The position numbers and the translations under genes were made by a program. Below are positions 6,896-52,905 of a stretch of 64,000 nucleotides of DNA, piece by piece. The notes under the pieces are model-generated. The model was not told where the DNA came from, ran no database searches, and worked only from the letters and a program-made list of their open reading frames with translations. The stretch's first letter is position 1, and the number at the start of each line of letters is the position of its first letter. The DNA lies in the NCBI GenBank assembly GCA_902627245.1, contig CACOIH010000002.1, positions 11,630 to 75,629 on the forward strand. Direction: 5' to 3'. Source of the DNA: an uncultured Alphaproteobacteria bacterium (GTDB lineage: Bacteria > Pseudomonadota > Alphaproteobacteria > HIMB59 > GCA-002718135).

Positions 6896-6924
6896 TAATA
6901 GTTCTTAATTATGACCTTTATTTG

Positions 6925-7863
6925 TTATTCAATAAATATTTCAGTTTCCTTATAACCTTTTGTAATAAAGTATGAAACTAAATTATTTGCTTCAGTATTT
7001 TCAATGGGACCAATAACTAAGTCAAATTTTGAATTATTTTTTTCAGAAGTATATTTTAAATTTTTATCATATTCATTAATTAATATTTGAATTTTTTCAT
7101 AATTTTCTATTCCAGATATTTTTAAGAATAATTTGAAATCTGATATTTTTTCAGATTTTAGTTCAATTGGTTCTTGCTTTATTTTATTAGTATTTTCTTC
7201 AGTTGTAATATCGTCGTCAATCTCAACAATTGATACTATATCTGTAGGAGCAGATGAAACAGTTTTTTCAAAATCTTCATCATTCATTGAATTTATAACA
7301 CTCTTCCATTGTTTACTTGCATCAGATAATATTTCGACTTTAACAGTAGCAATTTTAGATTTATAAAAGCCAAGAAGTTGCGCAACTTTTCTTGAAACTT
7401 GAATAATAGTTGCGTTTTCATAATGTCTATCAATAATTTTAACATTAATTGACAATCCATTATCCATATTAGTAATTTTCACCATACTTGGAAGTGGTAA
7501 GGTCTTATGTCTACCAAGTAATTCTGTTACCTTATTAATATCATTGTTTATTGTTTTTACATTATGTAATTCCTTGCCATAATAGGAAGATAAACCAATT
7601 TGAGAATAACTATAATTTTCCTTAGGTGTATAACTTACTCCTTCAATATAATATTGTTCTCCAACATAATAAAAAATATTGTCATTATTATTTAAATTAT
7701 CGTCATTATTGATAGTAATAGATTTTTTTTCTTCTTTATTTTCAATAACTTTTTCAATTTTTGATGCGCCTGTTTCTACCACTGTTGTAACTTTTTGAAT
7801 ATTTAATTCATTACAAGAATATAAAAATAAAAAAAAAGTAAAACTAGTTAGAAATTTTATCAC
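6925..7863 (-). CDS. rlpA: RlpA-family septal lytic transglycosylase lipoprotein with C-terminal SPOR-like domain
   Basis: Lipobox LYSC. DPBB-like core (HKTLPLPSMVKITNMDNGLSINVKIIDR) and a SPOR-like C-terminus. Confidence 0.75.
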   Translation of the reverse strand: MIKFLTSFTFFLFLYSCNELNIQKVTTVVETGASKIEKVIENKEEKKSITINNDDNLNNNDNIFYYVGEQYYIEGVSYTPKENYSYSQIGLSSYYGKELHNVKTINNDINKVTELLGRHKTLPLPSMVKITNMDNGLSINVKIIDRHYENATIIQVSRKVAQLLGFYKSKIATVKVEILSDASKQWKSVINSMNDEDFEKTVSSAPTDIVSIVEIDDDITTEENTNKIKQEPIELKSEKISDFKLFLKISGIENYEKIQILINEYDKNLKYTSEKNNSKFDLVIGPIENTEANNLVSYFITKGYKETEIFIE

Positions 7864-37865: not shown

Positions 37866-39023
37866 TTATACAGCTATTTTTAATCCATATCCAGTTTTTT
37901 TAATTCTTGTTTTAAAGTATTTTTTATTGAATTTATTTAAGGTTGGTTTTGTATTAATTTGATTTTCAACTATGATACCTGCTTTTTTAATAGAATTAAT
38001 TTTATTTTTATTATTTGTAATAATATTCACTTTTTCTATTTTTAATAATTTTAGTATCCTAGCAGCTATTCTAAAATCTCTTTCATCATCATGAAATCCA
38101 ATATTATGATCAGCATCTATAGTATCCATTCCTTTAGCTTGTAATGAATAGGCTCTCATTTTATTTGCTAGTCCAATTCCCCTACCCTCTTGCTCCAAAT
38201 ATAAAACAATACCTCCATTATTTCTAACCATGTAACTTATTGATTGATTTAATTGCTCACCACAATCACATTTTAATGAATGAAAAATATCACCTGTAAA
38301 ACAAGCCGAATGAATTCTGAGATTCACACATTTTTTTTTAATTTTATTTGGATTAACAATTATAGCAACATGTTTATCAGAGCCTATATATGATTTGAAA
38401 ATTTTAAATTTAGAATTTTGATTTTTTGGTAAAGGCACTTTAGCGCTTGATACTAATTTAATACTTTCAGAAATGAGTTCATTTTGGTTAACAAGATCTT
38501 TGTAGTCAAATAATAATATTCCATTTTTAAAAGCGAAATCATTAATATTTTGCTTGTACTTATCAGCAATTTTTTTAAAAACCAAAGAGGGAATCATCTT
38601 TGCATTTTTAGATAGATCAATACAAACATCATGGAATTTTTTTGATTTGAATTTTTTAATTTTTGTAAATTTTATAATTTTGTTTTTATTTAATGGATTT
38701 ATAAACAGATTCACTATATTATTAGTGTCAGTTTTGTGATTAATTTCAAAATAAATATTATTTTTGATATTTTGATTGAATATAGAATTAGCTTTTTGCT
38801 TAGTTACTAAAAGATATTTTTCATCAATTAGATACTTATTGAATTTGTTAAATATGGATGACTGAGAATGTTCTATATTAAAAAACATCCAATATTCTCT
38901 ATTATTTTGAATTATTAGAGGTCTGCCAGTTCTTAGCTCGTTTATAGCTCTATCTATAATTGTACCCGCATTAGATTTGAAACTCATGCAAACTTTATAT
39001 AGATAGAAAATAGATAAAAACAA
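37866..39023 (-). CDS. GTP cyclohydrolase II (RibA-like) with a degenerate RibB-like N-terminal domain
   Basis: C-terminal 170 aa carry the zinc triad HSACFTGDIFHSLKCDCG, EQEGRGIGLANKMRAYSLQ, and DERDF. The N-terminal IDRAINELRTGRPLII resembles the start of DHBP synthase but lacks the acidic DRENEGD loop. The likely true start is ATG 38987. Confidence 0.85.
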   Translation of the reverse strand: MFLSIFYLYKVCMSFKSNAGTIIDRAINELRTGRPLIIQNNREYWMFFNIEHSQSSIFNKFNKYLIDEKYLLVTKQKANSIFNQNIKNNIYFEINHKTDTNNIVNLFINPLNKNKIIKFTKIKKFKSKKFHDVCIDLSKNAKMIPSLVFKKIADKYKQNINDFAFKNGILLFDYKDLVNQNELISESIKLVSSAKVPLPKNQNSKFKIFKSYIGSDKHVAIIVNPNKIKKKCVNLRIHSACFTGDIFHSLKCDCGEQLNQSISYMVRNNGGIVLYLEQEGRGIGLANKMRAYSLQAKGMDTIDADHNIGFHDDERDFRIAARILKLLKIEKVNIITNNKNKINSIKKAGIIVENQINTKPTLNKFNKKYFKTRIKKTGYGLKIAV

Positions 39024-39860
39024 ATGATAACTTCACAAAATATAGGAAAATTACTAGAATACATCAAAAATTCCAAGAAAAATGAAAGTCTTTTTTTTCA
39101 TATAAATAGATATGTAATAAAAAGAACAACAAAAAATAAAAAATATAATCTATCTTTAATTAAAAATAATATTGAAACAAAATTTGAATTAAATGTATTA
39201 TACAAATCAATTCTTGAAATTCTTATTCCTATATTAAGAAAAAAAAAGAAATTGACTATTGCACAATTAGGACAAAGTATAGATGGCAGAATTGCCCTTA
39301 ATAATGGAAATTCTCATTATATTAACAATATAAAAGGGATACACTATTTACATTGTTTAAGAAGTATTAGTGATGCAATAGTAGTAGGATCAAATACAAT
39401 AAAAAATGATGATCCACAGTTAACTACTAGAAAGATAAAGGGTAATAACCCGAGAAGAATAATTATAGATGGTAGTTTATCTTTAACTAATAAGTATAAA
39501 ATATTTAATGATGGTTATAAAAATATAATTTTCACAAAAAGTAAAAAGAATAAAATACTAAATAACACTACAATTATAAGACTAGATAAAAATAATTTTA
39601 CAAAAAATATAATAAATCAAATAAATAAACTTGAATATAAATATGTACTAATTGAAGGTGGATCAAAAACGATTTCAGAATTTATAAACAATAAATATAT
39701 AGACTTACTTCAATTTATAATTGCACCGATTATTATCGGATCAGGTATTAACTCTTTAAACTTAAAAGAAATTAAAAATCTTAATAAAGCATTAAGGCCA
39801 AAATTTTCATACAATATTCTCGAAAAAGAACTCGTTGTTAATTTATTTCTTAATAGCTAA
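39024..39860 (+). CDS. RibD C-terminal-domain reductase (DHFR-like fold), no deaminase domain
   Basis: 278 aa with LGQSIDGRIA, DAIVVGSNTIKNDDPQLTTR and LIEGGSKT. It has an unassigned 75-aa N-terminal extension. Confidence 0.75.
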   Translation: MITSQNIGKLLEYIKNSKKNESLFFHINRYVIKRTTKNKKYNLSLIKNNIETKFELNVLYKSILEILIPILRKKKKLTIAQLGQSIDGRIALNNGNSHYINNIKGIHYLHCLRSISDAIVVGSNTIKNDDPQLTTRKIKGNNPRRIIIDGSLSLTNKYKIFNDGYKNIIFTKSKKNKILNNTTIIRLDKNNFTKNIINQINKLEYKYVLIEGGSKTISEFINNKYIDLLQFIIAPIIIGSGINSLNLKEIKNLNKALRPKFSYNILEKELVVNLFLNS

Positions 39861-40631
39861 AAAATCAGTATTCTGTAAAATTAACCTAGAATTTTTTTGC
39901 TTAATACAATTATATCTAAACTTTAACCAAGATGAATAATCTACTTTATTATTTTTAATGACTTTACTGCAAAAATATAAAAAATATTTTTGAAATTGAT
40001 AATTTTTTTCAACGTTCCATTTTGAATTCATTAGATAGGTATGATGAGTTTTTTTAAATATATTGTTAATTAAATTACTACAATTAGGGCCTACAGCTTT
40101 ATTACCTATGCCCTTATCAGTTTTTTGATCTTTGTTAAAAAGATTAACAATAATTTTATCATATTTATGTTTTGGTAAAAATTTAAAGTCACCATTATAA
40201 TTCAGGGCAAATAATACTATTTCTGTTTTAGAATTAAATTTATGAAATTTATAAAACCAATTTTTGGGTAATATATCTAAAAAAGCAGAGCCTGTAACAA
40301 TATCAAATGATTTAAATTTAATTTTATCTAAATCATTAATGACATCAAAAATCTGAAATTTAGTTTTAATGATTTTATTTGATAATTTTAAATTCCGTTT
40401 AAAATAATTTATAGAATTTAAAGAAATATCAGTAAAAACCCAGTTTTGAGAAAATTTAAGCTTAGGTTTTAAGTAATTAAAATTAGAACCAGTACCCGTG
40501 CCAAGATCAATAATAGAAACAGGAGTATTATTATCAAATTTTTTATTGATTAATTGAATAATTTTTAAATTTCTTGATTTTTTGTCTACTGTCTCTCTTA
40601 GTTTTAACCAATTATTGTTGAATTCATGCAT
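39843..40631 (-). CDS. Class I SAM-dependent methyltransferase
   Basis: 262 aa with SAM motif I IIDLGTGTGSN and a post-I acidic residue (FTDIS). Confidence 0.7.
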   Translation of the reverse strand: MHEFNNNWLKLRETVDKKSRNLKIIQLINKKFDNNTPVSIIDLGTGTGSNFNYLKPKLKFSQNWVFTDISLNSINYFKRNLKLSNKIIKTKFQIFDVINDLDKIKFKSFDIVTGSAFLDILPKNWFYKFHKFNSKTEIVLFALNYNGDFKFLPKHKYDKIIVNLFNKDQKTDKGIGNKAVGPNCSNLINNIFKKTHHTYLMNSKWNVEKNYQFQKYFLYFCSKVIKNNKVDYSSWLKFRYNCIKQKNSRLILQNTDFLAIKK

Positions 40632-41697
40632 TATTTAATATTTTTATAAATTTAGTTGCTGACTCATTAGGAGTTAAGAAATATCTTTTATTTTTCTTAA
40701 CACTTTCATTTAATTTTTTAAAGTTATCTTTATTAAAACAATTTTCCAATATAAGTTTTTGCAAATATTTGACGTTAAAACGATCAAAATATAAAACTCC
40801 TTTATTATTTAATGTCTGATAAATAGTTTTTGTATAAAAAGTAATAATTGGTTTTTTAGCAATTAACGAATTTGCTAATGACATACCAAAACCTTCATAT
40901 TTACTTACTGAAATATAAAAATCTGTTTGCGAATAAAGTTTAGATAATTTTGAGTCTGATACTTTGCCTATAAAATGTATTTTTTTTGATAATCTGTGAG
41001 TTTTGACGTATTTTTTAATTTTAATGTAATATTCATTATCTCTCGAAGTGTCGCCTATTATATTTAGAGAATAATTATTAAAATTCTTAAATACTTTTAA
41101 TAAAAAAAGATAATTTTTCCTATCAATTATACTTCCACAAGTGAGGAAAAATAATTTATTTTTTTTATTGTGCTTATGTTTTTTCATTCTTGGTATACCC
41201 GGTTCAACAACAGATATTTTGTGTCTTTTAATTTTAAATTCATTAATTAATAGAGTTTTAGTTTCAGATGAAGTTACAATAAAATTATTAATTAAATTTA
41301 AATATTTTTTTTCTAATTTAAAAAACTTATTAGCAGTTTTACCTTTAAATTCTAATGACAAAGGATGATGAATTAATCCTACTACTTTATAATCTTTAAA
41401 TTTTTTAAATACGTTATACATGCCCTCAAGAGCTAGTCCGTCAATTACAATGGTTGACTTAATTGGAATATCTTTTAAAATTTGTAGAAAGTGTTTTAAA
41501 TCTTTTTTATTAGGGAACGGGTAATTTGACGATAGTGCAACTGGGTGCATATTAATATTTTTTTTTTTACAATAGGATATTATATTTTTTTCATAAATAT
41601 AGCCTCCAGTTTTAGCATTAATATTTCCTGGATAAATAAAGTAAATTATTTTGTTTTTATTAATTAATTTGTTGCTCATAGGTAGCCCATGCAACAT
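40624..41697 (-). CDS. GT-B glycosyltransferase, group 1 (GT4-like)
   Basis: 357 aa with a C-terminal E-x7-E-type segment SKYEGFGMSLANSLIAKKPII. Its start (41697 or 41679) overlaps the PTPS-like gene by 38 or 20 nt. Confidence 0.8.
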   Translation of the reverse strand: MLHGLPMSNKLINKNKIIYFIYPGNINAKTGGYIYEKNIISYCKKKNINMHPVALSSNYPFPNKKDLKHFLQILKDIPIKSTIVIDGLALEGMYNVFKKFKDYKVVGLIHHPLSLEFKGKTANKFFKLEKKYLNLINNFIVTSSETKTLLINEFKIKRHKISVVEPGIPRMKKHKHNKKNKLFFLTCGSIIDRKNYLFLLKVFKNFNNYSLNIIGDTSRDNEYYIKIKKYVKTHRLSKKIHFIGKVSDSKLSKLYSQTDFYISVSKYEGFGMSLANSLIAKKPIITFYTKTIYQTLNNKGVLYFDRFNVKYLQKLILENCFNKDNFKKLNESVKKNKRYFLTPNESATKFIKILNNA

Positions 41698-42058
41698 TAG
41701 ATTCTTGTAATGATATTTTAATTTTTTTTAATATTTTATAATCGTTGGGATAATCGCTTTGCAATTTATTTAATATTTTTTCACATATATTTTTAGCTAA
41801 AAATTCAGTTGAAGTAATGATATCTTTAAATTCATCAACTTCATCTAGATTTTTATAATTATAAACTTTTAAAGTATCTTTAAGAATAGTTGTTACAACA
41901 CCAAGGTCCATAATTATATTATATTCATTAAGCTTATCAGTAAAAAATTCTGCATCTACCAAGTATGTTGCGCCATGCATATTTTGAGCTGGTCCAAATA
42001 CCTCACCTGGTAATGAATGAGCAATTAATATATTTTCTCTTACTTTTATAGAATACAT
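41660..42058 (-). CDS. 6-pyruvoyl-tetrahydropterin synthase-like T-fold protein (atypical metal site)
   Basis: 132 aa with IAHSL...NMHGATYLVDAEF. This is PTPS/QueD-like, but the usual HGH triad reads HGA. Confidence 0.65.
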   Translation of the reverse strand: MYSIKVRENILIAHSLPGEVFGPAQNMHGATYLVDAEFFTDKLNEYNIIMDLGVVTTILKDTLKVYNYKNLDEVDEFKDIITSTEFLAKNICEKILNKLQSDYPNDYKILKKIKISLQESNVAWATYEQQIN

Positions 42059-42060
42059 AT

Positions 42061-43020
42061 TTAATATTTTACTAAATGCATAATTGTGTTTTTATTATTT
42101 AATATCTTAAAATAATCACTTTCTAAATTAAAAAAATCACTTTCACTAGTAATTAATTTTTCTAATTTTTTACCTTTTAAAGAATTAATAGCTAATTTTA
42201 ATCTTTTTTCATAATCATACTTTTTTTGCATATGATAAGGTATCTGCGATACTTGAGAGCTGATTATCTTTAATCTTTTTGAATGAAAATAATCCCCTAA
42301 AGATAAATTTCCTTTTTTTGATCCATACCAGCTTGCTTCAACAATTTTACCCTCATTTACTAATAAAGACATAGATTTTTCTAAAACTTGGTAATTTGAG
42401 GTAGTGTTAATTATAATATTAAAATTTTTAGCCTGTTTTATATTTATATAACTTAATCCTAATAACTTAGCATATTTTTTTTTATTAATATTAATGTCAT
42501 ACACAAAAACATTTTTATAATTTTGAAGTTTAAAAAAATATGCAGTAAGTAACCCAACTGATCCTAAACCAAATATTAAAATTTTATCATTTTTATTTGA
42601 AACAGAGTCCCAAAAAATGTTTATAGCTGTTTCCATATTCGCAACAAGAACATATTTTCTTAAGTTATTTTTTGGCAATAAATTTATATTTTTAATTGGA
42701 ATTTCATAAATAGTTTGATGTGGAAATAAAGTAAAAATATTTTTATTTATTAAATTTTTTGGTCCATTAATTATTTTACCTACGTTTATATATCCATATT
42801 TTATAGGTAAATTAAAAGTTCCTTTTTGAAATGGTGCTTTCATTAAATGATATTGACTTTTATTTACTAATTTAGATGATATTAGTTTTTCAGTGCCCCT
42901 ACTTATTCCAGAATAAACTGTTTGTACTAAAACTGTTTTGGAATTTTTTTTATAATTAATTATATTATTTTTTATTATTGCTTGTTTTTTTTTATTAATC
43001 CATAGAGAATATGATTTCAT
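42061..43020 (-). CDS. Medium-chain (zinc-type) dehydrogenase/reductase family protein
   Basis: 319 aa with GISRGTEKL and a Rossmann GLGSVGLL. Confidence 0.7.
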   Translation of the reverse strand: MKSYSLWINKKKQAIIKNNIINYKKNSKTVLVQTVYSGISRGTEKLISSKLVNKSQYHLMKAPFQKGTFNLPIKYGYINVGKIINGPKNLINKNIFTLFPHQTIYEIPIKNINLLPKNNLRKYVLVANMETAINIFWDSVSNKNDKILIFGLGSVGLLTAYFFKLQNYKNVFVYDININKKKYAKLLGLSYINIKQAKNFNIIINTTSNYQVLEKSMSLLVNEGKIVEASWYGSKKGNLSLGDYFHSKRLKIISSQVSQIPYHMQKKYDYEKRLKLAINSLKGKKLEKLITSESDFFNLESDYFKILNNKNTIMHLVKY

Positions 43021-43033
43021 AATTTTCTTATAA

Positions 43034-43804
43034 ATGTATAATAAAAGAATGTTAACAAACTTTTATGAAGATTTATCATCTAGTGAAATTAAAAGAATAA
43101 ACAAAAAAACAGTATTAATTTTTCCTTTTTCATCAATTGAACAACATGGCTCTCATCTACCAATTAATACAGATAAGAAAATATTAGAAGGTATTCTAAA
43201 TGAATTTAATAGTAAATATTCCTCAAAAAAATATCTTATAATGCCACAAATTTATATTGGGTCTGCTAGTGAGCATAAATCCTACGACGGTACATTATCA
43301 TTAAATTCTATTGATTTTATTCAATATTCAATAAAAATAATTGAGCAATTATGTAAAAAAAAATTTAAAAATATTTTTCTTCTTAATAGTCATGGAGGGC
43401 AAATTAATCACCTGGATATTATTGGGAAAGAGCTTAAAGCTAATTATGATGTAACAATTGTAAAAGGAACATATTTTTTATTTGATGATTTCAAAGGAAT
43501 TATATCAAGAAAAGAGAAGGAGTATGGTTATCATGGTGGAGAATTTGAAACTTCTTTAATGCTTTACCTGTTTCCAGAATTAGTTAATTTGGATAAATTG
43601 ACGTCATATGAATACTCAACTGATTTAAAATCGACAAAAATAATTACATTAGAGAAAAATATAAAAAAATCTTGGTTAACTGAAGAAATAAGTAAAAGTG
43701 GTATAATTGGAAATCCTAGTAAATCCAATCAAGATAAGGGAAGGAAAATTGTTTTAAAGGTTATTAATTATATTAATAAAATTGTTAATGAGTTGTATAA
43801 TTAG
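43034..43804 (+). CDS. Creatininase-family amidohydrolase
   Basis: 256 aa with FPFSSIEQHGSHLPINTD, NSHGGQ and YHGGEFETS, which are typical of the creatininase / ArfB / MftE fold. Confidence 0.8.
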   Translation: MYNKRMLTNFYEDLSSSEIKRINKKTVLIFPFSSIEQHGSHLPINTDKKILEGILNEFNSKYSSKKYLIMPQIYIGSASEHKSYDGTLSLNSIDFIQYSIKIIEQLCKKKFKNIFLLNSHGGQINHLDIIGKELKANYDVTIVKGTYFLFDDFKGIISRKEKEYGYHGGEFETSLMLYLFPELVNLDKLTSYEYSTDLKSTKIITLEKNIKKSWLTEEISKSGIIGNPSKSNQDKGRKIVLKVINYINKIVNELYN

Positions 43805-44271
43805 TCTATTATTAAAACTACTTCTTCTTCATCTCTCAGATTATTATAAAACTTAACTTCTTCATAATTAACAATTTTTGATATTAATTCAATTTTATCT
43901 TTTGAAGAAGAGTAATATATTGGATTAAATGAATTATATCTTTTCTGAAACTCTAGAGCTTTAGTTTTATTTAAAGTCCAACTAAATCCATTAGTTGATC
44001 CAGCTCTATAAACTTTATTGGTTTTATTTATATTTTTTTTAAAAAATTTAATTGGTCTTCTCATATTTAAAATATCTTGCCATTTTTCTCTATTATGAGG
44101 TTCTGAGTTATGTTCAGACTTTGACCATGTATCAATAATAATATGCCAATGCTCTTTATCTGTTAAAGATTTTTGATAATTAGGTAACAATTCCCATAAA
44201 CCATCAACTTTCATCCAATCATGATAAGATAAAATACATTGTGATAATTCAAAATATGCACCTTTTGTCAT
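43801..44271 (-). CDS. Hypothetical protein
   Basis: 156-aa ORF. Its start is translationally coupled (ATGA) to the stop of the upstream histidine phosphatase gene. I recognise no family. Confidence 0.5.
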   Translation of the reverse strand: MTKGAYFELSQCILSYHDWMKVDGLWELLPNYQKSLTDKEHWHIIIDTWSKSEHNSEPHNREKWQDILNMRRPIKFFKKNINKTNKVYRAGSTNGFSWTLNKTKALEFQKRYNSFNPIYYSSSKDKIELISKIVNYEEVKFYNNLRDEEEVVLIID

Positions 44272-44837
44272 GAATTTATAAACTTGTTGTAAATTTCATC
44301 AAAATTGCAGATAAATAATTCGCAATTATCAAGCATATATTCTGTTATTTGGCTAAGATAAGTTCCATGACTTACTATAACAATATTTTCACTGTTAATA
44401 TTCTTTAATGAAATAATAAACTGCCTTAATCTTGCACGAATATCATTATGATTTTCTTGCTTAATCATTCTTTCATTAATAGGGATATTATTATTCCACC
44501 AATAATCTGACAGATTAGAAAAATCATAATCTATAAATTCTTTTTTTAATATCTTGGGTTGTCTTCCAACATCACAAGAATGATAAAGGTGTTCTCTAAT
44601 TAGAGGATCCAAAATAGGCTGTTTATTCGGAAAAACTATAGAAAATGTTTCCATAGTTCTTGTTAATGGTGAGCAAAAATATTTATCAAACGACAAATCT
44701 TTAATTTTTTGTGAAAGTTTTAATGCCTGTTCTTTACCTCTCTTTGTAATTCGTGCATCATAATAATATGTTGGATTATCTAAATCTGCTGCTGCATTAG
44801 CTTCTGATTCTGCATGTCTAATTAAATACAATTTCAT
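44268..44837 (-). CDS. Histidine phosphatase family protein (phosphoglycerate-mutase-like)
   Basis: 189 aa with LIRHAESEAN (RHG motif), SPLTRTMET and VSHG. Confidence 0.8.
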   Translation of the reverse strand: MKLYLIRHAESEANAAADLDNPTYYYDARITKRGKEQALKLSQKIKDLSFDKYFCSPLTRTMETFSIVFPNKQPILDPLIREHLYHSCDVGRQPKILKKEFIDYDFSNLSDYWWNNNIPINERMIKQENHNDIRARLRQFIISLKNINSENIVIVSHGTYLSQITEYMLDNCELFICNFDEIYNKFINS

Positions 44838-45060: not shown

Positions 45061-45957
45061 TTAATTCAAATTCTTATCTATTAAAACTTGTTTTACAGTT
45101 TCACCCATTACAGAGGGATTTTTAGAAATTGTAACTCCACATTCTTTTAGAAGTTCAACTTTTTCTACAGCACTTTCTCCATAAGCTGAAACAATAGCAC
45201 CTGCATGTCCCATTACTCTTCCCTTAGGTGCAGTTAAACCAGCAATATAAGCTATAACAGGCTTATTCATATTCTCTTTGGCAAATTGACCTGCGGCTAC
45301 CTCTTGAGGACCTCCTATTTCTCCAATCATTAAAACTGCAATTGTCTCATCATCAGTTTCAAATTTTTCTATAATATCTCTAAAAGAACTTCCATTGATA
45401 GGATCTCCCCCAATACCTACACTTGTTGAGACACCAATATCCAAATCCTTTAGTTGTTGGGCTGCTTCATAACCTAACGTTCCTGATCTGCTCACAATTC
45501 CTATCTTACCCTCTTTGTAAATATGACCAGGCATTATGCCTAACATAGATTTACCAGGACTAATTATGCCCGCACAATTAGGTCCTACTAAACCCATTTT
45601 TTTATCTTTTGAATATCTTCTCATATATCTTTTTATTTTGACCATGTCATGAGATGGAATACCATCTGTAATAGCTACACAAGTTTTAATACCTGCATCA
45701 GCAGCTTCCATTGCTGAGTCTGCTGCAAAAGCAGGTGGTACAAAAAGTATAGATGTAGAAGCACCTGTTTGATCAACTGCTTCTTTAACTGTATTAAATA
45801 CTGGAAGATTTAAGTGTGTCATTCCACCTTTTCCTGGAGTAACACCTCCAACTATATTAGAACCATATTTAATCATTTCTTCCGCATGAAATGTACCTAT
45901 CTTACCAGTGAAACCCTGTACTAGTATTTTCGTATTTTTATGAATTATTATCGACAT
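45061..45957 (-). CDS. mtkB: Malate--CoA ligase (malate thiokinase) alpha-type subunit
   Basis: 298 aa with the CoA-ligase alpha fold and phosphohistidine loop MGHAGAIV. NCAGIISPGKSMLGIMPGHIY and ITDGIPSHDM..KRYMRRY match MtkB as I recall it, not SucD (NCPGVITPGECKIGI). It sits in an operon with mcl. Confidence 0.75.
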   Translation of the reverse strand: MSIIIHKNTKILVQGFTGKIGTFHAEEMIKYGSNIVGGVTPGKGGMTHLNLPVFNTVKEAVDQTGASTSILFVPPAFAADSAMEAADAGIKTCVAITDGIPSHDMVKIKRYMRRYSKDKKMGLVGPNCAGIISPGKSMLGIMPGHIYKEGKIGIVSRSGTLGYEAAQQLKDLDIGVSTSVGIGGDPINGSSFRDIIEKFETDDETIAVLMIGEIGGPQEVAAGQFAKENMNKPVIAYIAGLTAPKGRVMGHAGAIVSAYGESAVEKVELLKECGVTISKNPSVMGETVKQVLIDKNLN

Positions 45958-47120
45958 TAATTACTTAAAGCCTTTACTGCCTTATTTGCTGCATCTTCCA
46001 ATGTGCTAGCTTCAATGTAATTTATCTTACTTTTTTTTAAAATTTCATTTCCTTTTTCAACATTTGTTCCAGCTAGCCTAATTACTAATGGTAAAGAAAT
46101 TTCTATTTTATTTAATGCTTGTACTATTCCTTCAGCAACCCAATCACATCTATTTATACCTGCAAAAATATTTATTAATATTACTTTAACTTTTTTATCC
46201 ATAGAAATAAGCTTAAACGCTTTGACTATTTTTTCTGGAGTAGCCCCTCCTCCAACATCTAAGAAATTTGCTGGTTCACCTCCAGCAAGTTTTATCATAT
46301 CCATAGAAGCCATCGCTAATCCAGCACCATTAATGATATTACCAATATTTCCATCAAGACTTACATAATTCATACCTCTGTCAGAGGCATAAACTTCATT
46401 AGAATTTTCCTGAGTTTTATCTCTAAGTTCTGAAATTTCATCCCTTCTAAACATTGCGTTATTATCAAAACTCATTTTACAATCTAAAGCAAAAATTTCA
46501 TCTTGTTGTGATACAACTAAAGGATTAACTTCAACCATCGTTGCATCAAGTTCACTAAATGCTTTATAACAACCAATAATAGTATTTGCAGCTCTTGAAA
46601 TTAGTTTAGGTTCAATTCCTAAACCAAATGCAATCTCTCTAGCTTGAAATTGCTGAATGCCAACTGCAACTTCAATTTTACTTCTAATAATTGTTTCAGG
46701 TTTTTCTTTTGATATTTCTTCAACACTCATGCCTCCCTCTGTAGAAGCAACAACCATTATACTTTCTGATGATCTATCGAATACCAATCCTAAATATAAT
46801 TCATGCTTAATATCGGTAGCTTCCTCAATATATATTCTATTTATAATTTTACCCTCTGGCCCTGTCTGATTAGTAACAAGTTTTTTTCCTAATAATTTAT
46901 CTGTAGCATCTGCTACTTCTAAGGGTGAGTTACAAACTATTATACCACCTGCTTTACCTCTTGCTCCTGAATGTACTTGTGCCTTAACAACCCATTTAGA
47001 ACCACCAATTTCTCTAGCTTTGTTTTCTGCATTCTCAGGACTGTATACTATTCCACCTGTAGGTATTTTAACTCCAAAATCAGATAAGATTTTTTTAGCT
47101 TGATACTCGTGAATATCCAT
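45957..47120 (-). CDS. mtkA: Malate--CoA ligase (malate thiokinase) beta-type subunit
   Basis: 387 aa with ATP-grasp N-terminus MDIHEYQAK. GIQQFQAREIAF and FAGINRCDWVAEG resemble MtkA rather than SucC. Confidence 0.75.
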   Translation of the reverse strand: MDIHEYQAKKILSDFGVKIPTGGIVYSPENAENKAREIGGSKWVVKAQVHSGARGKAGGIIVCNSPLEVADATDKLLGKKLVTNQTGPEGKIINRIYIEEATDIKHELYLGLVFDRSSESIMVVASTEGGMSVEEISKEKPETIIRSKIEVAVGIQQFQAREIAFGLGIEPKLISRAANTIIGCYKAFSELDATMVEVNPLVVSQQDEIFALDCKMSFDNNAMFRRDEISELRDKTQENSNEVYASDRGMNYVSLDGNIGNIINGAGLAMASMDMIKLAGGEPANFLDVGGGATPEKIVKAFKLISMDKKVKVILINIFAGINRCDWVAEGIVQALNKIEISLPLVIRLAGTNVEKGNEILKKSKINYIEASTLEDAANKAVKALSN

Positions 47121-48058
47121 TATTTACTTTCAATTAGCTTGTTTATATTTACGATATTCTCAGCCATCCTTGCAGAAGCAGCGTCAATCATTCTACCATC
47201 AAGTTGTGCAGCACCTTTGCCTTCTGCTGCAGCTTTATCTAATTCCTCTAAAATACGTTTAGCTTTATTTACTTCATCATTTGGAGGAGAAAAAACTTTA
47301 TTTGCTAAATCAATTTGTGAAGGATGAATTGCCCACTTTCCCTCAAAACCAATTGCCGCAGCTCTTTTAGCAGCATCCAGATATCCCTCTTTATCATTAA
47401 AGTCTCCAAATGGTCCATCTATTGCTCTTAGTCCATATGATCTACACGTCATAACAAGTGTAGATAAACCATGATGCCATTGATCTCCAGGATAATCTGG
47501 GTTTAGTCCACCTATTACAACTGTTCTAGCTCTCATACTTGCAGCATAATCAGCAACACCAAAATGTAGTGCTTCCAGTCTTGAACTTGATTTAGCAATA
47601 GATTGAATATTAGACATTCCAAGTGCCGTTTCAATAAGGCATTCCAATCCTATAGTATTTTGGAATTTTTTATTTTGCTCTATTTGATTGAGCATGCAGT
47701 CTACCATATATACGTCTGAAGCGGAGCCAACCTTTGGTATTAACAAAGTATCTACTTTATCTCCTACCTCTTCAATAATTTCAATTACATCACGATACAT
47801 GTAATGAGTATCTAATCCATTTATTCTAATTGAAATAGTTTTGCCATTATCCTTCCAATTAAGTTCTTTTATAGCAGTTATAACATTTTTTCTTGCGTCT
47901 ATTTTATCGTTTGGAGAAACAGCATCCTCTAAATCTAAAAAAATATAATCTGCATTTGAGTTTAATGCTTTTTCAAACATTTTTGGAGAAGATCCTGGAA
48001 CCGCTAATTCACTCCTTTGAAGTCTAGACTTGGCAGGTTTGTAATATAGATGACTCAT
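47120..48058 (-). CDS. mcl: L-malyl-CoA / beta-methylmalyl-CoA lyase (HpcH/HpaI-CitE family)
   Basis: 312 aa. RSELAVPGS, IFLDLEDAV, RINGLDTHYMYRDV, LIETALGM, FGVADYAAS and EGKWAIHPSQIDLAN align along the whole length with methylotroph MclA as I recall it. Confidence 0.85.
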   Translation of the reverse strand: MSHLYYKPAKSRLQRSELAVPGSSPKMFEKALNSNADYIFLDLEDAVSPNDKIDARKNVITAIKELNWKDNGKTISIRINGLDTHYMYRDVIEIIEEVGDKVDTLLIPKVGSASDVYMVDCMLNQIEQNKKFQNTIGLECLIETALGMSNIQSIAKSSSRLEALHFGVADYAASMRARTVVIGGLNPDYPGDQWHHGLSTLVMTCRSYGLRAIDGPFGDFNDKEGYLDAAKRAAAIGFEGKWAIHPSQIDLANKVFSPPNDEVNKAKRILEELDKAAAEGKGAAQLDGRMIDAASARMAENIVNINKLIESK

Positions 48059-49268: not shown

Positions 49269-49868
49269 ATGCATATTTACGATTTCATTCAGGGGCTAAT
49301 AATCGGATTTACCCTAATAATTGCTATTGGTCCTCAAAATTTATTTGTAATTAATCAGGGATTAAAGAAAACATTTGTACTTACTGTAGTTTTGTTTTGT
49401 AGCCTTTCTGACAGTATTTTAATAATAATTGGTATAAATATATCAAGTGTAATTGTAGGTATAAATCCAAATACAATTATTATTTTAAAAATTTTAGGAG
49501 GTATTTGGTTAGTATTTTATGGTTTAAATAAAATTAGATATGTTAATAAAATTAGAAATTTACAAAATATTGAAACAATTGAAAGTGATTTTAAGAAAAT
49601 CCTAATAACCTTATTTCTAATTACTTATGCTAATCCACATGTATATTTAGATACAATTATATTAATAGGTTCAATTTCTACAAATTTTAATAGTCAATTA
49701 TTCTTTGGAATGGGTGCAGTGATGGCAAGCTTTATATTTTTCTTTGCTTTAGGTTATTTGTCTAAACTTCTATCTAAATATATATATTCAAATAAAACCT
49801 GGTTTTGGATAGATCTAATTATAGGGTTTTTAATGATTTTATATGGAATTAAATTTATATTTTTTTAA
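49269..49868 (+). CDS. LysE/ArgO-family amino-acid exporter
   Basis: 199 aa with six TM helices and an N-terminal GPQNLFVINQG motif. Confidence 0.8.
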   Translation: MHIYDFIQGLIIGFTLIIAIGPQNLFVINQGLKKTFVLTVVLFCSLSDSILIIIGINISSVIVGINPNTIIILKILGGIWLVFYGLNKIRYVNKIRNLQNIETIESDFKKILITLFLITYANPHVYLDTIILIGSISTNFNSQLFFGMGAVMASFIFFFALGYLSKLLSKYIYSNKTWFWIDLIIGFLMILYGIKFIFF

Positions 49869-52800
49869 AAAAACTTTCTAAATTTTCACAAACATTATCA
49901 ACATTTTGCCTATTAAATATTAAAGGTGGCTTTATTTTTATAACATTATCATGAGGACCATCGGTACTTAATAAGATTCCATTATTTCTCATAAAATTTA
50001 TAATTTTTTTTGCTAATTGCTTATTTGGTTTTAGTTTATTTGAGTTTTTTATAATATCAATTCCTATAAATAATCCTCTACCTCTCACTTCGCTTATATA
50101 TTTTTTGTTTTTACGTTTGATTCTTTCCAGCTTATTTAAAAAATACTTACCCACACTTAATGCATTCTCCTGAAGTTTTTTATTTTCAATAACTTCCAAT
50201 ACTGATTTTCCTACAGCACAAGATACTGGATTACCTCCAAATGAATTAAAATACTCCATGCCATTATTAAATGATGCGGCAATTTTTTCTGTTGTTACTA
50301 CTGCACCAATAGGATGACCATTGCCCATAGGTTTACCTAATGTAACAATATCTGGTATAACTTGATGCTCCTGGAATGACCAAAAATTATTACCAACTCT
50401 TCCAAATCCAGTCTGTACTTCATCTACAATACATAAAGCTTTATTTTTTCTAACTTCTTTGAAAACTTCCTTTAAATAATTTTTTGGAAGTATGACCTGG
50501 CCTCCACATCCTAAAATACTCTCAGTAAATAAACATGATAATTTATTAATTTTAGATTGATGATTTATTTTTTCTTTTGCTTCATTAATATATTTCTTAA
50601 TCCAATCTTTATTTTTATACTGCCATTTGCCCCTCAAAGGATCAGGCATTTCTAAAACATGTACATATTTCTTTTTACCTAATCCACCGTTTCCATCAAA
50701 TTTGTAAGGACTAAGGTCTATTAAAGAATTTGTATGACCGTGATATGCATTATCAATTACAAATACATCTTTTGCTTTTGTGTATGTCTGAGCAATTCTA
50801 TACGCTAAATCATTAGCTTCAGATCCCGTACAAACAAAAAAAATTTTATTTAATTTTTTAGGAAATTTACTAAGCAGTTTGTCGCTATATTGATTAATCA
50901 TATCATATAAATATCTTGTATTTGTATTTAACTTTAAATTTTGATTAATCATGGCATTATGTACATGAGAGTTTGAATGGCCAACATGTGAGATATTATT
51001 CACACAATCTAAATATCGTCTTCCATAACGATCAAAAAAATATTGATCTTTTGCTTCAAGCATATGTAATGGACGATCATAAGAAATTGATAAATTGTGG
51101 GAAATATTTGTTTTTCTTTTATTTAAAATAGTTTTGAAATCTTGTTTATTACTAAAAAAAGAATTTGGTATTTTAAGAATTAAATTTGGATCCGGTGATA
51201 TTTTAGACCATACATCAATTAAGTATTCTTCCCCAACACCTGGAAAGTTTGTTTTTTCACCCAATAAATCTAAGATAATTTGAAAATGTAAATGGGGAAG
51301 CCAATTACCATTTTCTTTAGTTTGACCAATTTTCCCAATCCAATCACCTTTTTTAATTTTTTTACCTATTTTTAATTTTTTTAATATTTTTTTTGATAGA
51401 TGCCCATAAAGCGTATAAAATTTATTGTTTTGAAACTCATGTTCTAGAACAAGTGTTGGGCCATAATCATATTTAAAGGCATTATCTTTGAGGATCTTTA
51501 CCTTGCCATCAATAGGTGCAAATAAATCTGTACCATGTTTAATGAATATATCTATTCCTAAGTGAATATTACGTCTTTTAATGTTATTAAGTTCTGAAAT
51601 AAAATTAATACCTTTGTATACTTTTCTTTTTTCTTTATATAGTCCTATTCCAATATTTGAATTATCATTTTTGTATATTCTATTAACTCTAATATTGATT
51701 TCACTATTAGTTGGATTTCCTTTAAGTAAGTGCGATGTTGAATTTAATTTTAAAATAGATTTGTTTACATCAAGCAAATTAAAACTAAAAATATTCGCAA
51801 AATCATAATTTTTTAAAAAAGTAATAATTTTATTATAATTTTTAATAGTTGAATAACCACAAATATTTCTAATAATATAAATTAAAAACTGAGTAGGTAT
51901 TTTATCTAATTTTTCTAGTAGAGCCCATGCATCATTTTCACTAATACTTAAATATTTATTTTTTGGATATTTAATTCTTTGTTTCTTTGCCATTACAACT
52001 GTAATCATTAATCTAGATTTGCTTAAAGAGATCAAGGAATTAATTTCATCTTCGTTAATTGAAAATATTTTATGATATTCAGAAATTATATTTTGTAATG
52101 TTGAAAAAATATTATTATTATTCATTAATGCGTAAGACAAACAAATAGCTAAATCATTTATTGTAGGTGCATAAATAGAATCACCGTAATCTAAAAGACC
52201 ATTTATCTTATTATTTTTAACAACAAGATTATAATTATTAGGGTCTGAATGAGTAATCGAATATCTTAATTTTTTTAGATTATTTTTAACTAATTTTTCG
52301 TATTCTAAAAAACAATTAACTAAAATTAATTTTTTATTGCCAGTAAAATTATTTATTTCTTTATAAACCCAATCTATATTAGAGGGATCCCAAATAAATT
52401 TTCTATAAGCATCTTTATCAAAAAAAGATTTCAATTGAACTGAAGTCATACCAATTAAGCTGCCTAATGATTTTTCAATATTAGGATTAGTTTTTATATC
52501 TCCGTACATTCTTCCATCTATGTAAGATAATATTCTAACAAAACACTCTCTATTTTTTGTGTCTAAATATTTCACTATTTTTTTATGAAGAATTTTTGGG
52601 ATATATTCTTTAAGTTCTTTAGTAGTACTTAAATGTTTAATTAATCTATCTTGATATTGAAGAATATTTAAATTTTCATAAGGATTTGAGATTTTAAGTA
52701 CATATTTTTTTTTATCTTGTATGGATATTGTAAAATTTATGTCTCTTTCACTATTTAATTTGTTAAGGGTAAAGGATTTATTTCGTAAGAATGAATAATT

Positions 52801-52905
52801 AGTTTTTAGCCATTTAATTAAATGCTTTTTTTCAATTATAGGTGGCTCAACATCAAAAACTGACATAAAAGGTGTATAATTCATAATGACAAAATCTAAA
52901 AACAT
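49855..52905 (-). CDS. Tri-domain fusion: APH-type kinase + M23 peptidase domain + class-III aminotransferase (phospho-lyase-like)
   Basis: 1016 aa. Kinase catalytic loop [10 protein letters not shown] and LDYGDS at about aa 217-245. M23 HxxxD (HLGIDIF, aa 448) and HxH (HLHFQI, aa 538-540). C-terminal [23 protein letters not shown] and PLP-Lys [11 protein letters not shown]. Confidence 0.85.

Follow-up and report, generated by a model that had tools for sequence, protein, structure and literature searches.

A conserved seven-gene PTPS-IV block in a SAR11-type bacterium that appears to convert GTP to a sugar-bearing, methylated compound

Introduction

Which pathway is served by a compact set of genes that places a GTP cyclohydrolase II (GCH II) beside a glycosyltransferase and a methyltransferase? 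Such a set lies within the DNA analysed here, a stretch of 64,000 nucleotides (hereafter the window) from a SAR11-type marine bacterium. The cluster type is already in the literature, in which PTPS-IV proteins are marked by FGPAQ and have PF00925 (GCH II) and PF01872 (RibD_C) proteins among their neighbours (PMC5445326). For no member of a PTPS-IV cluster does the literature describe a product, intermediate or enzyme activity. The initial annotation, made from the sequence of the window alone, had held that the set does not add up to riboflavin, folate, queuosine or molybdopterin synthesis, and the characterised pathways of riboflavin, folate, queuosine, BH4, toxoflavin and mycofactocin indeed do not account for it.

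Results

Organization of the block

The block at 37866-43804 is a real, tightly packed module of seven genes (Table 1). The MDR, PTPS-IV, glycosyltransferase (GT4) and methyltransferase (MT) genes form one run from 43020 to 39843 with overlapping ends. The MDR and creatininase genes diverge across 13 bp, and the GCH II and RibD_C genes diverge across about 36 bp. All seven open reading frames lie where the initial annotation had placed them and belong to the families it named, the MDR and MT proteins by fold and profile evidence. In profile HMM searches, GTP_cyclohydro2, RibD_C, PTPS, Creatininase and Glycos_transf_1 were matched, and Methyltransf_25 was matched at its threshold. In RefSeq, orthologues are named "zinc-binding alcohol dehydrogenase", "glycosyltransferase family 4 protein" and "class I SAM-dependent methyltransferase".

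Table 1 Genes of the block and the adjoining phosphatase gene (window coordinates)
Product	Coordinates	Strand	Family evidence and remarks
Long-form GTP cyclohydrolase II (GCH II)	37866..38987	-	Pfam PF00925
RibD_C-only pyrimidine reductase homologue	39024..39860	+	Pfam PF01872
Class I SAM-dependent methyltransferase (MT), cluster-specific family	39843..40631	-	Pfam Methyltransf_25
GT4 glycosyltransferase, GT-B fold	40624..41697	-	Pfam Glycos_transf_1, Glyco_trans_1_4
PTPS-IV T-fold protein, SCO6650 orthologue	41660..42058	-	Pfam PTPS; PDB 3D7J
Divergent MDR-fold NAD(P) dehydrogenase	42061..43020	-	Pfam ADH_zinc_N (sub-threshold), AlphaFold model and Foldseek
Creatininase-fold metal amidohydrolase	43034..43804	+	Pfam Creatininase
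Histidine-phosphatase family protein (His_Phos_1)	44268..44837	-	Pfam His_Phos_1; outside the conserved seven-gene block

Conservation of the gene neighbourhood

In a genome scan, at least 597 stretches encode a PTPS-IV relative. Neighbours were counted in the 58 loci whose flanks reach 5 kb or more on each side; these loci come from SAR11, from further Alphaproteobacteria and from Beta- and Gammaproteobacteria, Bacteroidota and Actinobacteria. The MDR gene lies beside PTPS-IV in 56 of the 58 loci, and the two share a strand in 66 of 71. Near PTPS-IV are also genes for GT4 (51/58), a methyltransferase (48/58), a CDP-alcohol phosphatidyltransferase (CAPT, 44/58), GCH II (43/58), creatininase (39/58), a flippase-like protein (37/58) and RibD_C (26/58). 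SAR11 loci L008-L011 show full synteny with the window, and in a second SAR11 clade (L013-L015) the same seven genes stand together in other genomic surroundings. The set is a conserved functional unit; the fortuitous neighbourhood that the initial annotation had allowed for is not upheld by this co-localisation across phyla. Most actinobacterial clusters have no RibD_C, and most rhizobial ones have no GCH II or creatininase; it is therefore uncertain in which order the early steps run and which of them are needed. The view that such a pathway is unexpected in a streamlined genome is tempered by its abundance, with MDR orthologues forming large clusters, of as many as 1117 members, in marine metagenomes.

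The cyclohydrolase

GTP_cyclohydro2 (161 bits) covers residues 193-356 of the GCH II protein, and an NCBIfam PRK08815 match spans its full length at 264 bits, below the cut-off of 464. In an alignment with RibA of E. coli (2BZ0), all three zinc-binding cysteines are retained, as are DERDF and the Tyr in NKMRAYSLQ that corresponds to Tyr105, in line with the intact zinc triad and Tyr first reported. The N-terminal domain of about 190 aa gives PDB profile matches to DHBP synthases only (3H07, E 2.4e-4), and its DDEsREnEGD acidic loop is substituted or gapped, which weakly bears out the earlier reading of a RibB-like domain that has lost this loop. The protein thus joins a probably degenerate RibB-like N-terminal domain to an intact GCH II catalytic domain. 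The open reading frame extends to a TTG at 39023; a start at this codon is disfavoured. Translation most likely begins with the ATG at 38987, which gives 373 aa, because the gene calls of relatives begin there (MSFKSN).

The reductase and the creatininase-fold hydrolase

The reductase matches RibD_C at 103.6 bits, and Pfam found no deaminase domain in it, as the initial annotation had stated. In the PDB, it is closest to the reductase domains of RibD and to archaeal DARP reductases. In the alignment to PDB reductases, a Gln occupies the position of the Lys of bacterial RibD, where the archaeal enzymes (2AZN and 6P8C) have Asn. Nearly all cluster-linked RibD_C proteins have Gln or His at this position, with a few weak actinobacterial matches deviating, and they form a distinct, cluster-specific subfamily with the motif "AQxGQS(I/L)DG". 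Retention of the 2-amino group, as suggested earlier, fits a Gln in place of Lys, given the Asn of archaeal 2-amino-specific reductases; the reaction itself is one that we infer.

GCH II and RibD_C might be ordinary riboflavin genes that lie, by chance or co-regulation, beside an unrelated sugar-modification operon and a creatininase-like hydrolase. All RibA catalytic residues are present in GCH II, Tyr105 included, and GCH II is the best-conserved protein of the block between SAR11 clades (85% versus 59-72% for the others). We nevertheless regard this explanation as quite improbable: the reductase lacks the deaminase that riboflavin requires, its Gln/His subfamily is specific to the neighbourhood of PTPS-IV in Rhizobium, Streptomyces and others, PF00925 and PF01872 recur as PTPS-IV neighbours across phyla (see also PMC5445326), and the seven genes move together. 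Moreover, no ribH, ribE, ribB or FMN riboswitch was found in the window. The GCH II of the SAR11 block may also serve riboflavin synthesis in addition to a role in the module.

The hydrolase matches Creatininase at 176.9 bits and PDB creatininases at E 1e-12 to 1e-13, and falls under every NCBIfam cut-off (MftE 94.6 bits; creatininase 85 bits; ArfB 24.6 bits against a cut-off of 180). Among the loci surveyed, creatininase is present only where the cluster GCH II is also present. In the actinobacterial cluster GCH II, Met or His replaces the Tyr, and a creatininase gene is almost always nearby. The strict co-occurrence and these Tyr-to-Met/His variants point to a deformylase role for the hydrolase. 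The SAR11 GCH II keeps its Tyr, so that it should deformylate its own product and a separate deformylase would be redundant.

The cyclohydrolase, creatininase-fold hydrolase and deaminase-less reductase of the block parallel archaeal ArfA (GCH III), ArfB and ArfC, the reductases sharing an amide residue at the bacterial Lys position. An F420-dependent PPOX-class oxidoreductase is also encoded near some Streptomyces clusters. The module could accordingly feed a pyrimidine precursor to a deazaflavin (FO/F420-type) or other flavin analogue in the archaeal order of cyclohydrolase, deformylase and reductase, followed by PTPS-IV in a new deaminase role. The archaeal set differs from the block: the cyclohydrolase is of type II in the SAR11 block and of type III in archaea, the hydrolase scores far below the ArfB cut-off, the SAR11 MDR, T-fold, GT4 and MT proteins have no archaeal counterpart, and no riboflavin or FO genes follow. 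The deazaflavin reading seems very improbable. No CofG/CofH/FbiC, CofC/D/E or lumazine/riboflavin synthase was found among the recurrent or annotated neighbours or the scanned open reading frames of the window, and the making of F420 involves none of GT4, MT, MDR and the lipid genes. An involvement of PTPS-IV in F420 synthesis is stated, as unpublished, in a review (PMC5041015); this statement is undocumented, and the route proposed below makes no use of it.

The PTPS-IV protein and the dehydrogenase

The PTPS-like protein (PTPS, 74.6 bits) matches S. coelicolor SCO6650 (PDB 3D7J) at E 5e-32, and this match and the FGPAQ signature identify it as a SCO6650 orthologue of the PTPS-IV type. The link to an S. 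coelicolor cluster, made in the initial annotation, was therefore correct. That cluster includes SCO6650, the GCH II paralogue SCO6655 and their neighbours, and the SCO6650-type cluster shares with the SAR11 block the core of MDR, PTPS-IV, GT4 and MT together with creatininase and GCH II. On the other hand, GCH II is short with a Met in Streptomyces and long with a RibB-like N-terminal domain and a Tyr in SAR11, and the RibD_C of the SAR11 block is absent from most Streptomyces clusters.

HGA in place of HGH is confirmed in the PTPS-IV protein (HGAT), in which the third zinc His and the catalytic Cys are both missing. Among 42 diverse homologues, S15, G22, A24, H28, T31, L71 and D72 are invariant, and H14 and E119 are kept in at least 90%. 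We take Glu119 to be the equivalent of the pterin-anchoring Glu of PTPS/QueD. According to its structure paper, SCO6650 reportedly does not catalyse the PTPS reaction. Synthesis of BH4 and pterin glycosides (GCH I, PTPS-II, sepiapterin reductase, BGluT/PgtA) shares with the block the GTP start, a T-fold protein, a dehydrogenase or reductase and a GT-B enzyme. However, it is entered via GCH I and not GCH II, its PTPS has the Cys and third His of the CxxxxxHGH motif, and its reductase has the SDR fold whereas the block encodes an MDR.

The MDR protein itself matches ADH_zinc_N below threshold (23.8 bits) and, as a weak sequence match, NCBIfam TIGR01202 bchC (48.8 bits); ADH_zinc_N is matched by 14 of 14 orthologues. 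Its AlphaFold (AF2) model has a pTM of 0.72, and the top PDB matches of the model in Foldseek are all MDR dehydrogenases (E about 1e-14), so that the predicted structure confirms the family. The catalytic-zinc motif is lacking, with GISRGTE and KYGY instead of GxCxxD and GHE.

The transferases and the phosphatases

The glycosyltransferase matches Glycos_transf_1 (71.4 bits) and Glyco_trans_1_4 (47.8 bits), with WbnH as the closest PDB relative (E 4e-9); no pteridine glycosyltransferase structure is among its PDB matches. Since the nearest relatives, such as WbnH, act on lipid-linked sugars, its acceptor may not be a small molecule. The methyltransferase scores 27.0 bits with Methyltransf_25, exactly on the threshold, and its family alignment shows an N-terminal W-L-x-L-R-E-x-x-D motif and DLGxGTG. 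A eukaryote-like protein fuses three PTPS-IV copies to the cluster MT family (hhalign probability 95%, E 3e-8). In an algal fusion, visual inspection alone picked out a DxDxL motif similar to HAD motif I.

The gene for the His_Phos_1 protein (76.7 bits) adjoins that for creatininase in the SAR11 lineage of the window and its closest clade, and such a gene is absent beside the block in L013-L015. In other lineages, an IMPase-family phosphatase lies inside the cluster. The His_Phos_1 protein is possibly an accessory for a dephosphorylation step in this SAR11 clade only.

Lipid and envelope genes outside SAR11

In 48 of the 51 non-SAR11 loci, at least one of CAPT, an MprF-like (LPG_synthase_TM) flippase-like protein, a sulfatase/LtaS-like protein and MdoH is encoded beside the core, and 31 of the 32 actinobacterial loci have CAPT and a flippase-like membrane protein, which SAR11 loci do not. 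None of these lipid or envelope genes was found, whether in the window or, for the seven SAR11 loci of two clades, up to 10 kb from the block. Since the clusters of other lineages nearly all add phospholipid or envelope genes, the SAR11 cluster is a minimal, reduced variant of soluble enzymes. In most other phyla, a phospholipid or glucan probably carries the product, with export to the envelope. The combination of CAPT, GT4, an IMPase-family phosphatase and an MprF-like flippase domain in these clusters recalls the logic of PI/PIM, GlcN-PI and mycothiol-type synthesis and would parallel head-group assembly on a polyol phosphate, as an architectural resemblance only; a GTP-derived ribityl-pyrimidine would stand for the inositol phosphate, and SAR11 has none of the lipid genes.

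The same pathway could also yield a membrane or envelope component in SAR11, a phospholipid head group or glucan substituent, if the seven genes make only a head-group precursor and unlinked genes supply the phosphatidyltransferase and export. The envelope genes of the non-SAR11 loci and the lipid-linked acceptors of the closest solved GT4 relatives speak for this. Against it stand the lack of lipid genes around the SAR11 blocks and the transfer of exactly seven soluble-enzyme genes as a unit in the second SAR11 clade, and we consider it rather unlikely.

Discussion

We lean, with moderate confidence, towards a dedicated biosynthetic module that follows the route below and represents, in SAR11, the widespread but uncharacterised SCO6650-type PTPS-IV cluster. 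The conserved orphan pathway, the S. coelicolor link and the deaminase-less RibD_C of the initial annotation stand; its product, a glycosylated, methylated diaminopyrimidine, pteridine or flavin-like compound, is what we infer. The module appears to convert GTP to a sugar-bearing, methylated pyrimidine- or pterin-like compound.

In the first step, the long-form GCH II, with its catalytic residues intact, would open GTP to 2,5-diamino-6-(5-phosphoribosylamino)-4(3H)-pyrimidinone. The creatininase-fold hydrolase would work with it, most plausibly as a deformylase that, like archaeal ArfB, takes the N-formyl group off the formamidopyrimidine intermediate. The RibD_C protein would then reduce ribosyl to ribityl, with the 2-amino group retained. 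Steps four to six are suggested by family membership only. In step four, the zinc-less MDR and zinc-less T-fold PTPS-IV, a near-invariant pair, might remodel the polyol-pyrimidine, perhaps through oxidation of a side-chain hydroxyl and a T-fold-assisted rearrangement or closure to a pterin-type bicycle. An argument against the proposed route is that neither the zinc site nor the catalytic triad of PTPS is present in PTPS-IV. A phosphatase would next remove the 5'-phosphate, the candidates being His_Phos_1 in the window, IMPase in other lineages and, possibly, a third type in the algal fusion. Finally, GT4 would add a sugar and the SAM methyltransferase a methyl group.

The chlamydial bypass, in which the GCH II product and an Amadori isomerase (TrpF) give dihydroneopterin monophosphate (PMC4161248), provides a chemical precedent for step four, since a single rearrangement enzyme diverts the GCH II product from riboflavin to a pterin. 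The SAR11 block has no TrpF-like enzyme, however, and the T-fold and MDR proteins would have to perform the rearrangement; the bypass serves folate in Chlamydia, whereas the PTPS-IV cluster occurs in folate-competent bacteria. Toxoflavin synthesis (toxABCDE) likewise combines a GCH II and RibD-type start with a SAM methyltransferase. Yet ToxE has the deaminase domain that the SAR11 RibD_C lacks, the block has no spare open reading frame for the roles of ToxC/ToxD, and PTPS-IV, MDR, GT4 and creatininase have no role in that pathway.

The association of the cluster with lipid and envelope genes outside SAR11 is a new observation of this analysis, and these genes alter the likely nature of the end product.

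Organization of the seven-gene block

The window (GC ~26%) carries core chromosomal genes (gyrA, ssb, uvrA, sodB, secDF, coaD, recG, htpG, and serC), and among the matches listed in the genome scan, its nearest genomic relatives are single-cell genomes of Pelagibacterales (SAR11). Seven ORFs are packed into positions 37866–43804 with nearly no intergenic DNA. They encode a GTP cyclohydrolase II (GCH II), a RibD_C reductase, a SAM methyltransferase (MT), a GT4 glycosyltransferase, a PTPS-like T-fold protein, an MDR dehydrogenase, and a creatininase-family hydrolase, the seven genes and families named in the initial annotation. Pfam matches are clear for GTP_cyclohydro2, RibD_C, PTPS, Creatininase, and Glycos_transf_1, the methyltransferase lies at the threshold, and MDR, which falls below it, was confirmed by structure prediction and comparison as described below. 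A TTG-started GCH II is absent from the protein collection, in which the other six block proteins are present. The promoter/terminator scan returned 74 sites versus 72.5 expected and is uninformative, since the DNA is only 22% GC.

Positions of the seven-gene block and neighboring features in the window
Feature	Position	Strand	Arrangement
MDR, PTPS-like, GT, MT (in this order)	43020 to 39843	minus	one run, ends overlap
Creatininase-family gene			divergent from MDR, 13 bp gap
GCH II	start 38987 (most likely ATG, from gene calls in relatives)	minus	divergent from RibD_C, ~36 bp apart
RibD_C		plus	divergent from GCH II, ~36 bp apart
156-aa ORF	43801–44271	minus	between creatininase and His_Phos_1 genes
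His_Phos_1	44268–44837
Malate–CoA ligase beta subunit, succinate/malate–CoA ligase alpha subunit, CitE/malyl-CoA-lyase-like protein	45061–48058	minus	directly downstream of the cluster region
1016-aa protein	49855–52905	minus

The cluster region (38000–44000) has a GC content of ~22%, below the 27–33% of its flanks. Its proteins are 59–72% identical between SAR11 clades, versus 92–96% for the three malate–CoA ligase/CitE-like genes on one flank, which are conserved well above their neighbors; GCH II, at 85%, is the exception to this faster divergence of the cluster. The first of the three flanking genes matches NF010647 of NCBIfam (626 bits; cut-off 604), and the trio looks like a malate thiokinase and malyl-CoA lyase pair of glyoxylate/C2 metabolism. 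The 1016-aa protein combines an N-terminal region of ~580 residues with a class-III aminotransferase in its C-terminal half (NCBIfam PRK06148, 1025 bits, slightly below the cut-off) and is syntenic and conserved in the SAR11 loci L008–L010. The 156-aa ORF has no match in Pfam or NCBIfam. It occurs in the window's own lineage (contigs L003–L005, a protein cluster of 102 members) and is missing at the same position in the syntenic SAR11 loci L008–L011; it looks like a lineage-specific insertion.

The T-fold protein belongs to the PTPS-IV subfamily

The T-fold protein of the window carries EVFGPAQNMHGATY, which contains FGPAQ, the defining signature of the PTPS-IV subfamily of COG0720 (PMC5445326). 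Among 42 diverse T-fold homologues, Gly22, Ala24, and His28 are invariant and Phe21 is present in at least 90%. As the initial annotation stated, the usual HGH of the metal triad is replaced by HGA, here within an HGAT motif in which His28 and Thr31 are invariant and Gly29 and Ala30 are kept in at least 90% of the 42 homologues. The catalytic Cys and the third zinc-binding His are lost, and neither CxxxHGH nor CxxxxxHGH, the motifs of BH4-type PTPS-II and QueD, occurs in the protein. The sole match in a PDB search was 3D7J, the "uncharacterized protein SCO6650" of Streptomyces coelicolor (E = 5.2e-32, residues 1–129). Since this is the only PDB relative, the S. coelicolor cluster named in the initial annotation was the correct one. 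SCO6650 and the neighboring GCH II paralogue SCO6655 were reportedly studied structurally and enzymatically in 2006–2008, with no pathway found, and PTPS-IV has stayed an orphan in annotation ever since.

RefSeq/PGAP calls the orthologues "6-carboxytetrahydropterin synthase" with the GO term queuosine biosynthesis (e.g., in NZ_CP063398.1, NZ_CP023738.1, NZ_CP023408.1, NZ_CP020371.1, and NZ_CP136762.1). This name is a misnomer, because these proteins do not have the QueD motif and stay under the cut-off of the QueD model TIGR03367 (38.2 bits for the window protein, cut-off 89); the labelling of PTPS-IV as a queuosine enzyme is therefore a systematic misannotation.

A genome-neighborhood study listed PF00925 (GCH II) and PF01872 (RibD_C) as neighbors of PTPS-IV (PMC5445326), and in the window both families lie within 3 kb of the PTPS-IV gene. 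Because these neighbors are already in the literature, the cluster is not categorically new. A full-text literature search returned no article characterizing the pathway or cluster, and its only relevant hits were mentions of PTPS-IV in PMC5445326 and PMC5041015.

Several PTPS-IV-like proteins of marine metagenomes (P0124, P0126, P0142, P0144, P0152, and P0154; loci L092 and L093) have two to three tandem PTPS-IV domains per chain. They are high-GC and eukaryote-like, and such a chain would amount to a T-fold trimer joined covalently. FGPAQ and HGAT are missing from the middle repeat. Two of the tandem proteins (~820–855 aa) have a long C-terminal extension. In P0144, the only one compared, hhalign relates this extension to the methyltransferase family specific to the cluster (probability 95%, E = 3e-8), so that the fusion links PTPS-IV and the methyltransferase functionally. 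The linker of this fusion contains a DxDxL motif that, by eye, resembles HAD motif I. A search for the MDR family in the algal fusion protein by hhalign was negative. Apparent PTPS–MDR and PTPS–GT "fusions" in metagenome proteins were set aside, since overlapping genes may have been read through there.

The seven genes form a conserved unit

An exhaustive profile-free protein search yielded 1017 PTPS-IV-like representatives, and a genome scan with a nine-sequence alignment found at least 597 stretches encoding a PTPS-IV relative, a number that is not a census. The window proteins were searched against six-frame ORFs of the best 80 of these at least 597 loci, which come from SAR11, other Alphaproteobacteria, Beta- and Gammaproteobacteria, Bacteroidota, and Actinobacteria. 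Genes were counted over 58 of the best 80 loci, those flanked by 5 kb or more on either side.

Genes found at the 58 PTPS-IV loci flanked by 5 kb or more on either side
Gene	Loci	Remark
MDR	56/58
GT4	51/58
MT	48/58
GCH II	43/58
Creatininase	39/58
RibD_C	26/58
CDP-alcohol phosphatidyltransferase (CAPT)	44/58	51/80 overall
LPG_synthase_TM (MprF-like flippase domain)	37/58
Membrane sulfatase/LtaS-like protein	23/58
FkbM methyltransferase	9/58
Cytochrome b	8/58
IMPase-family phosphatase	7/58
MdoH/OpgH glucan synthase	5/58	above NCBIfam cut-off

PTPS-IV and MDR share a strand in 66 of 71 loci overall. The SAR11 loci L008–L011 are syntenic with the window across the whole 20 kb. Three further SAR11 loci (L013–L015) have the identical seven genes in the identical order in an unrelated context, where a glutamine-synthetase-like gene borders the block at one end and CMD and MFS genes border it at the opposite end. 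Since these loci carry exactly those seven genes, the block is a unit, and the His_Phos_1 gene and the 156-aa ORF are clade-specific neighbors outside it. Together with the counts over 58 loci, this settles the question raised in the initial annotation of whether the neighborhood is fortuitous: it is conserved. In marine metagenomes, orthologues of the window MDR with 56–95% identity fall into large clusters, the biggest with 1117 members. The block is common in the ocean.

GCH II and RibD_C compared with riboflavin enzymes

In the alignment of GCH II with Escherichia coli RibA (2BZ0), the three zinc Cys, the Tyr of NKMRAYSLQ (Tyr105), DERDF, and the Arg128 region are kept, which bears out the intact zinc triad and the Tyr105 equivalent claimed from the sequence. 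Profile searches of the N-terminal domain of ~190 residues against the PDB gave DHBP synthases only (best E = 2.4e-4), and the acidic loop DDEsREnEGD of these enzymes is gapped or replaced. Both observations modestly support the proposed degenerate RibB-like domain. The RibD homologue is a reductase without a deaminase, as the initial annotation had it: the ~75 residues preceding the reductase core match no deaminase family in Pfam or NCBIfam, in which only RibD_C was detected.

A Gln of RibD_C aligns with the Lys of the bacterial RibD proteins 2HXV, 9NO2, and 3ZPC, and with the Asn of 2AZN and 6P8C, the archaeal 2,5-diamino-specific reductases in the comparison set. In Bacillus subtilis RibG, this Lys is Lys151, which is reported to select the deaminated substrate. 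The motif AQxGQS(I/L)DG is common to the cluster-linked RibD_C proteins of all phyla, with His in Bacteroidota, so that Gln or His is conserved; judged by this motif, the cluster RibD_C appears to be a dedicated subfamily.

The catalytic residues that GCH II shares with RibA would also fit plain riboflavin genes. Against that reading, RibD_C lacks the deaminase domain and has Gln or His in place of the bacterial RibD Lys throughout the cluster-linked proteins. The putative dedicated subfamily is also present in Rhizobium, Streptomyces, and other carriers that are expected to have a normal ribD besides the cluster RibD_C. The 64-kb window has no FMN riboswitch, and no further rib genes, such as ribB, ribH, or ribE, were found among the window ORFs scanned. 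GCH II may nevertheless be in dual use.

MDR and creatininase-family proteins

Searches of the PDB with the single MT and MDR sequences gave nothing usable. The AF2 model of MDR (pTM 0.72) retrieved MDR enzymes as all of its top Foldseek PDB matches (E ~1e-14, TM 0.55–0.62), ADH_zinc_N is matched by 14 of 14 MDR orthologues tested, and the predicted GroES-like domain and Rossmann fold confirm membership in the MDR superfamily. Where zinc-dependent MDRs have Cys/His ligands, this family has GISRGTE and KYGY, a region of low model confidence, and the sequence motifs do not include the catalytic zinc ligands (Cys, His, and Glu). The zinc site is lost in both the T-fold protein and MDR.

In actinobacterial clusters, GCH II is a short form in which Met or His replaces Tyr105. 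SCO6655 is one such Met variant and is reported to go no further than the formylated product. Nearly all of the Met/His variants have a creatininase-family gene within 10 kb. Across all loci, this gene is never seen without a cluster GCH II, and it is absent from 13 of the 13 other-alphaproteobacterial loci that have GT4. Since it tracks GCH II and not GT4, the hydrolase is tied to the cyclohydrolase step rather than to the sugar. By analogy, it may work like the archaeal creatininase-fold deformylase ArfB. The likeness lies in fold and gene context only, and the ArfB equivalog NF033501 gives 24.6 bits versus a cut-off of 180, so that membership is not implied. The deformylase idea leaves unexplained why SAR11 and two gammaproteobacterial loci have the hydrolase together with a long GCH II of the Tyr type. 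The MftE model TIGR03964 scores 94.6 bits versus a cut-off of 172, and the mycofactocin partners, a radical-SAM or precursor-peptide gene, are absent from the block. A sugar N-deacetylase of the MshB/PIG-L-like kind was rejected as the main reading, given the lack of the gene in those GT4-bearing loci (0/13).

Lipid and envelope genes accompany the cluster outside SAR11

Additional genes were recognized through RefSeq-annotated plasmid copies and profile searches. CAPT was first found only through the RefSeq annotation of plasmid copies; single-linkage clustering of the locus ORFs, which collapsed into one giant component owing to spurious overlapping ORFs in high-GC DNA, missed it. At least one of CAPT, LPG_synthase_TM, the sulfatase-like protein, and MdoH is present in 48 of the 51 non-SAR11 loci. 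MdoH/OpgH is carried by roseobacters, Methylosinus OB3b, and some Rhizobiales. None of these four was detected in the 64-kb window or in any of the seven SAR11 loci (CAPT, phmmer E < 1e-4; the others, E < 1e-5). The window does not have the full-size PTPS-IV cluster of Actinobacteria, Rhizobiales, and Gammaproteobacteria, and its block is a reduced, soluble-enzyme-only variant of this known, uncharacterized cluster type.

The non-SAR11 clusters resemble the systems for phosphatidylinositol/PIM or GlcN-PI, in which head-group assembly likewise uses a phosphatidyltransferase, a phosphatase, a GT4 enzyme, and a flippase. On the gene content, a GTP-derived 5'-phosphoribityl-pyrimidine would be a candidate polyol phosphate for the head group. 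A link between lipid/envelope genes and the PTPS-IV cluster is absent from the literature searched.

In several Proteobacteria, a cytochrome b gene (b561/YceJ-type) lies within the cluster or borders it (L087, a Rhizobium sp. SL42 plasmid; L090, a Thiodictyon plasmid; L052, L058, L060, L066, and L083), and in Roseovarius a YceI-like gene adjoins it (6319–7017 of locus L017). These neighbors hint at a membrane redox role of the product. In many Streptomyces (L034, L046, L064, L065, L072, L077, L081, L085, and L089), an F420-dependent PPOX-class oxidoreductase (TIGR03618, 129 bits, above cut-off) is encoded 1–5 kb past the cluster GCH II. This neighbor may underlie an unpublished remark linking PTPS-IV and F420 (PMC5041015).

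A possible pathway and its significance

GTP would give a 2,5-diamino ribosyl compound, and reduction of this would yield its ribityl counterpart with retention of the 2-amino group, the creatininase-family hydrolase presumably acting together with GCH II. The product would then be dephosphorylated, glycosylated, and methylated. More speculatively, MDR and PTPS-IV could oxidize the side chain and then rearrange the compound, or close its ring, to give a pterin, for which the chlamydial route through GCH II and TrpF to dihydroneopterin monophosphate is a chemical precedent (PMC4161248). The interpretation in the initial annotation, a pathway to a glycosylated and methylated GTP-derived compound, is supported in part: the conserved neighborhood and the link to SCO6650 argue for it, and its product is one that we infer.

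We tentatively propose, as a reading that is rather improbable at present, that the PTPS-IV cluster makes a new GTP-derived class, a 2-amino-pyrimidine or pterin polyol with a methylated sugar, which would be phosphatidyl- or glucan-linked and flipped outward in most bacteria, and free and soluble in SAR11. If true, the compound could serve most carriers, on the outward side of the membrane, as a head group that is anchored to lipid and active in redox reactions or signalling; several of the clusters include a cytochrome b. Few organisms in the ocean are as abundant as SAR11 bacteria. The core spans at least five bacterial phyla or classes; it is found on plasmids of rhizobia and Streptomyces, in a methanotroph, in picoeukaryote-like fusions, and in abundance in SAR11. 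With its seven genes for soluble enzymes, the SAR11 block is minimal, compact, and suited to heterologous expression. Elsewhere, the cluster is associated with CAPT, flippase-like, LtaS-like, or MdoH genes. These point to an end product bound to the envelope, which makes membrane fractions worth examining besides culture supernatants. If confirmed, the cluster would represent a new branch in the metabolism of GTP and of pterins and flavins, and its product might be a lipid head group of a new kind.
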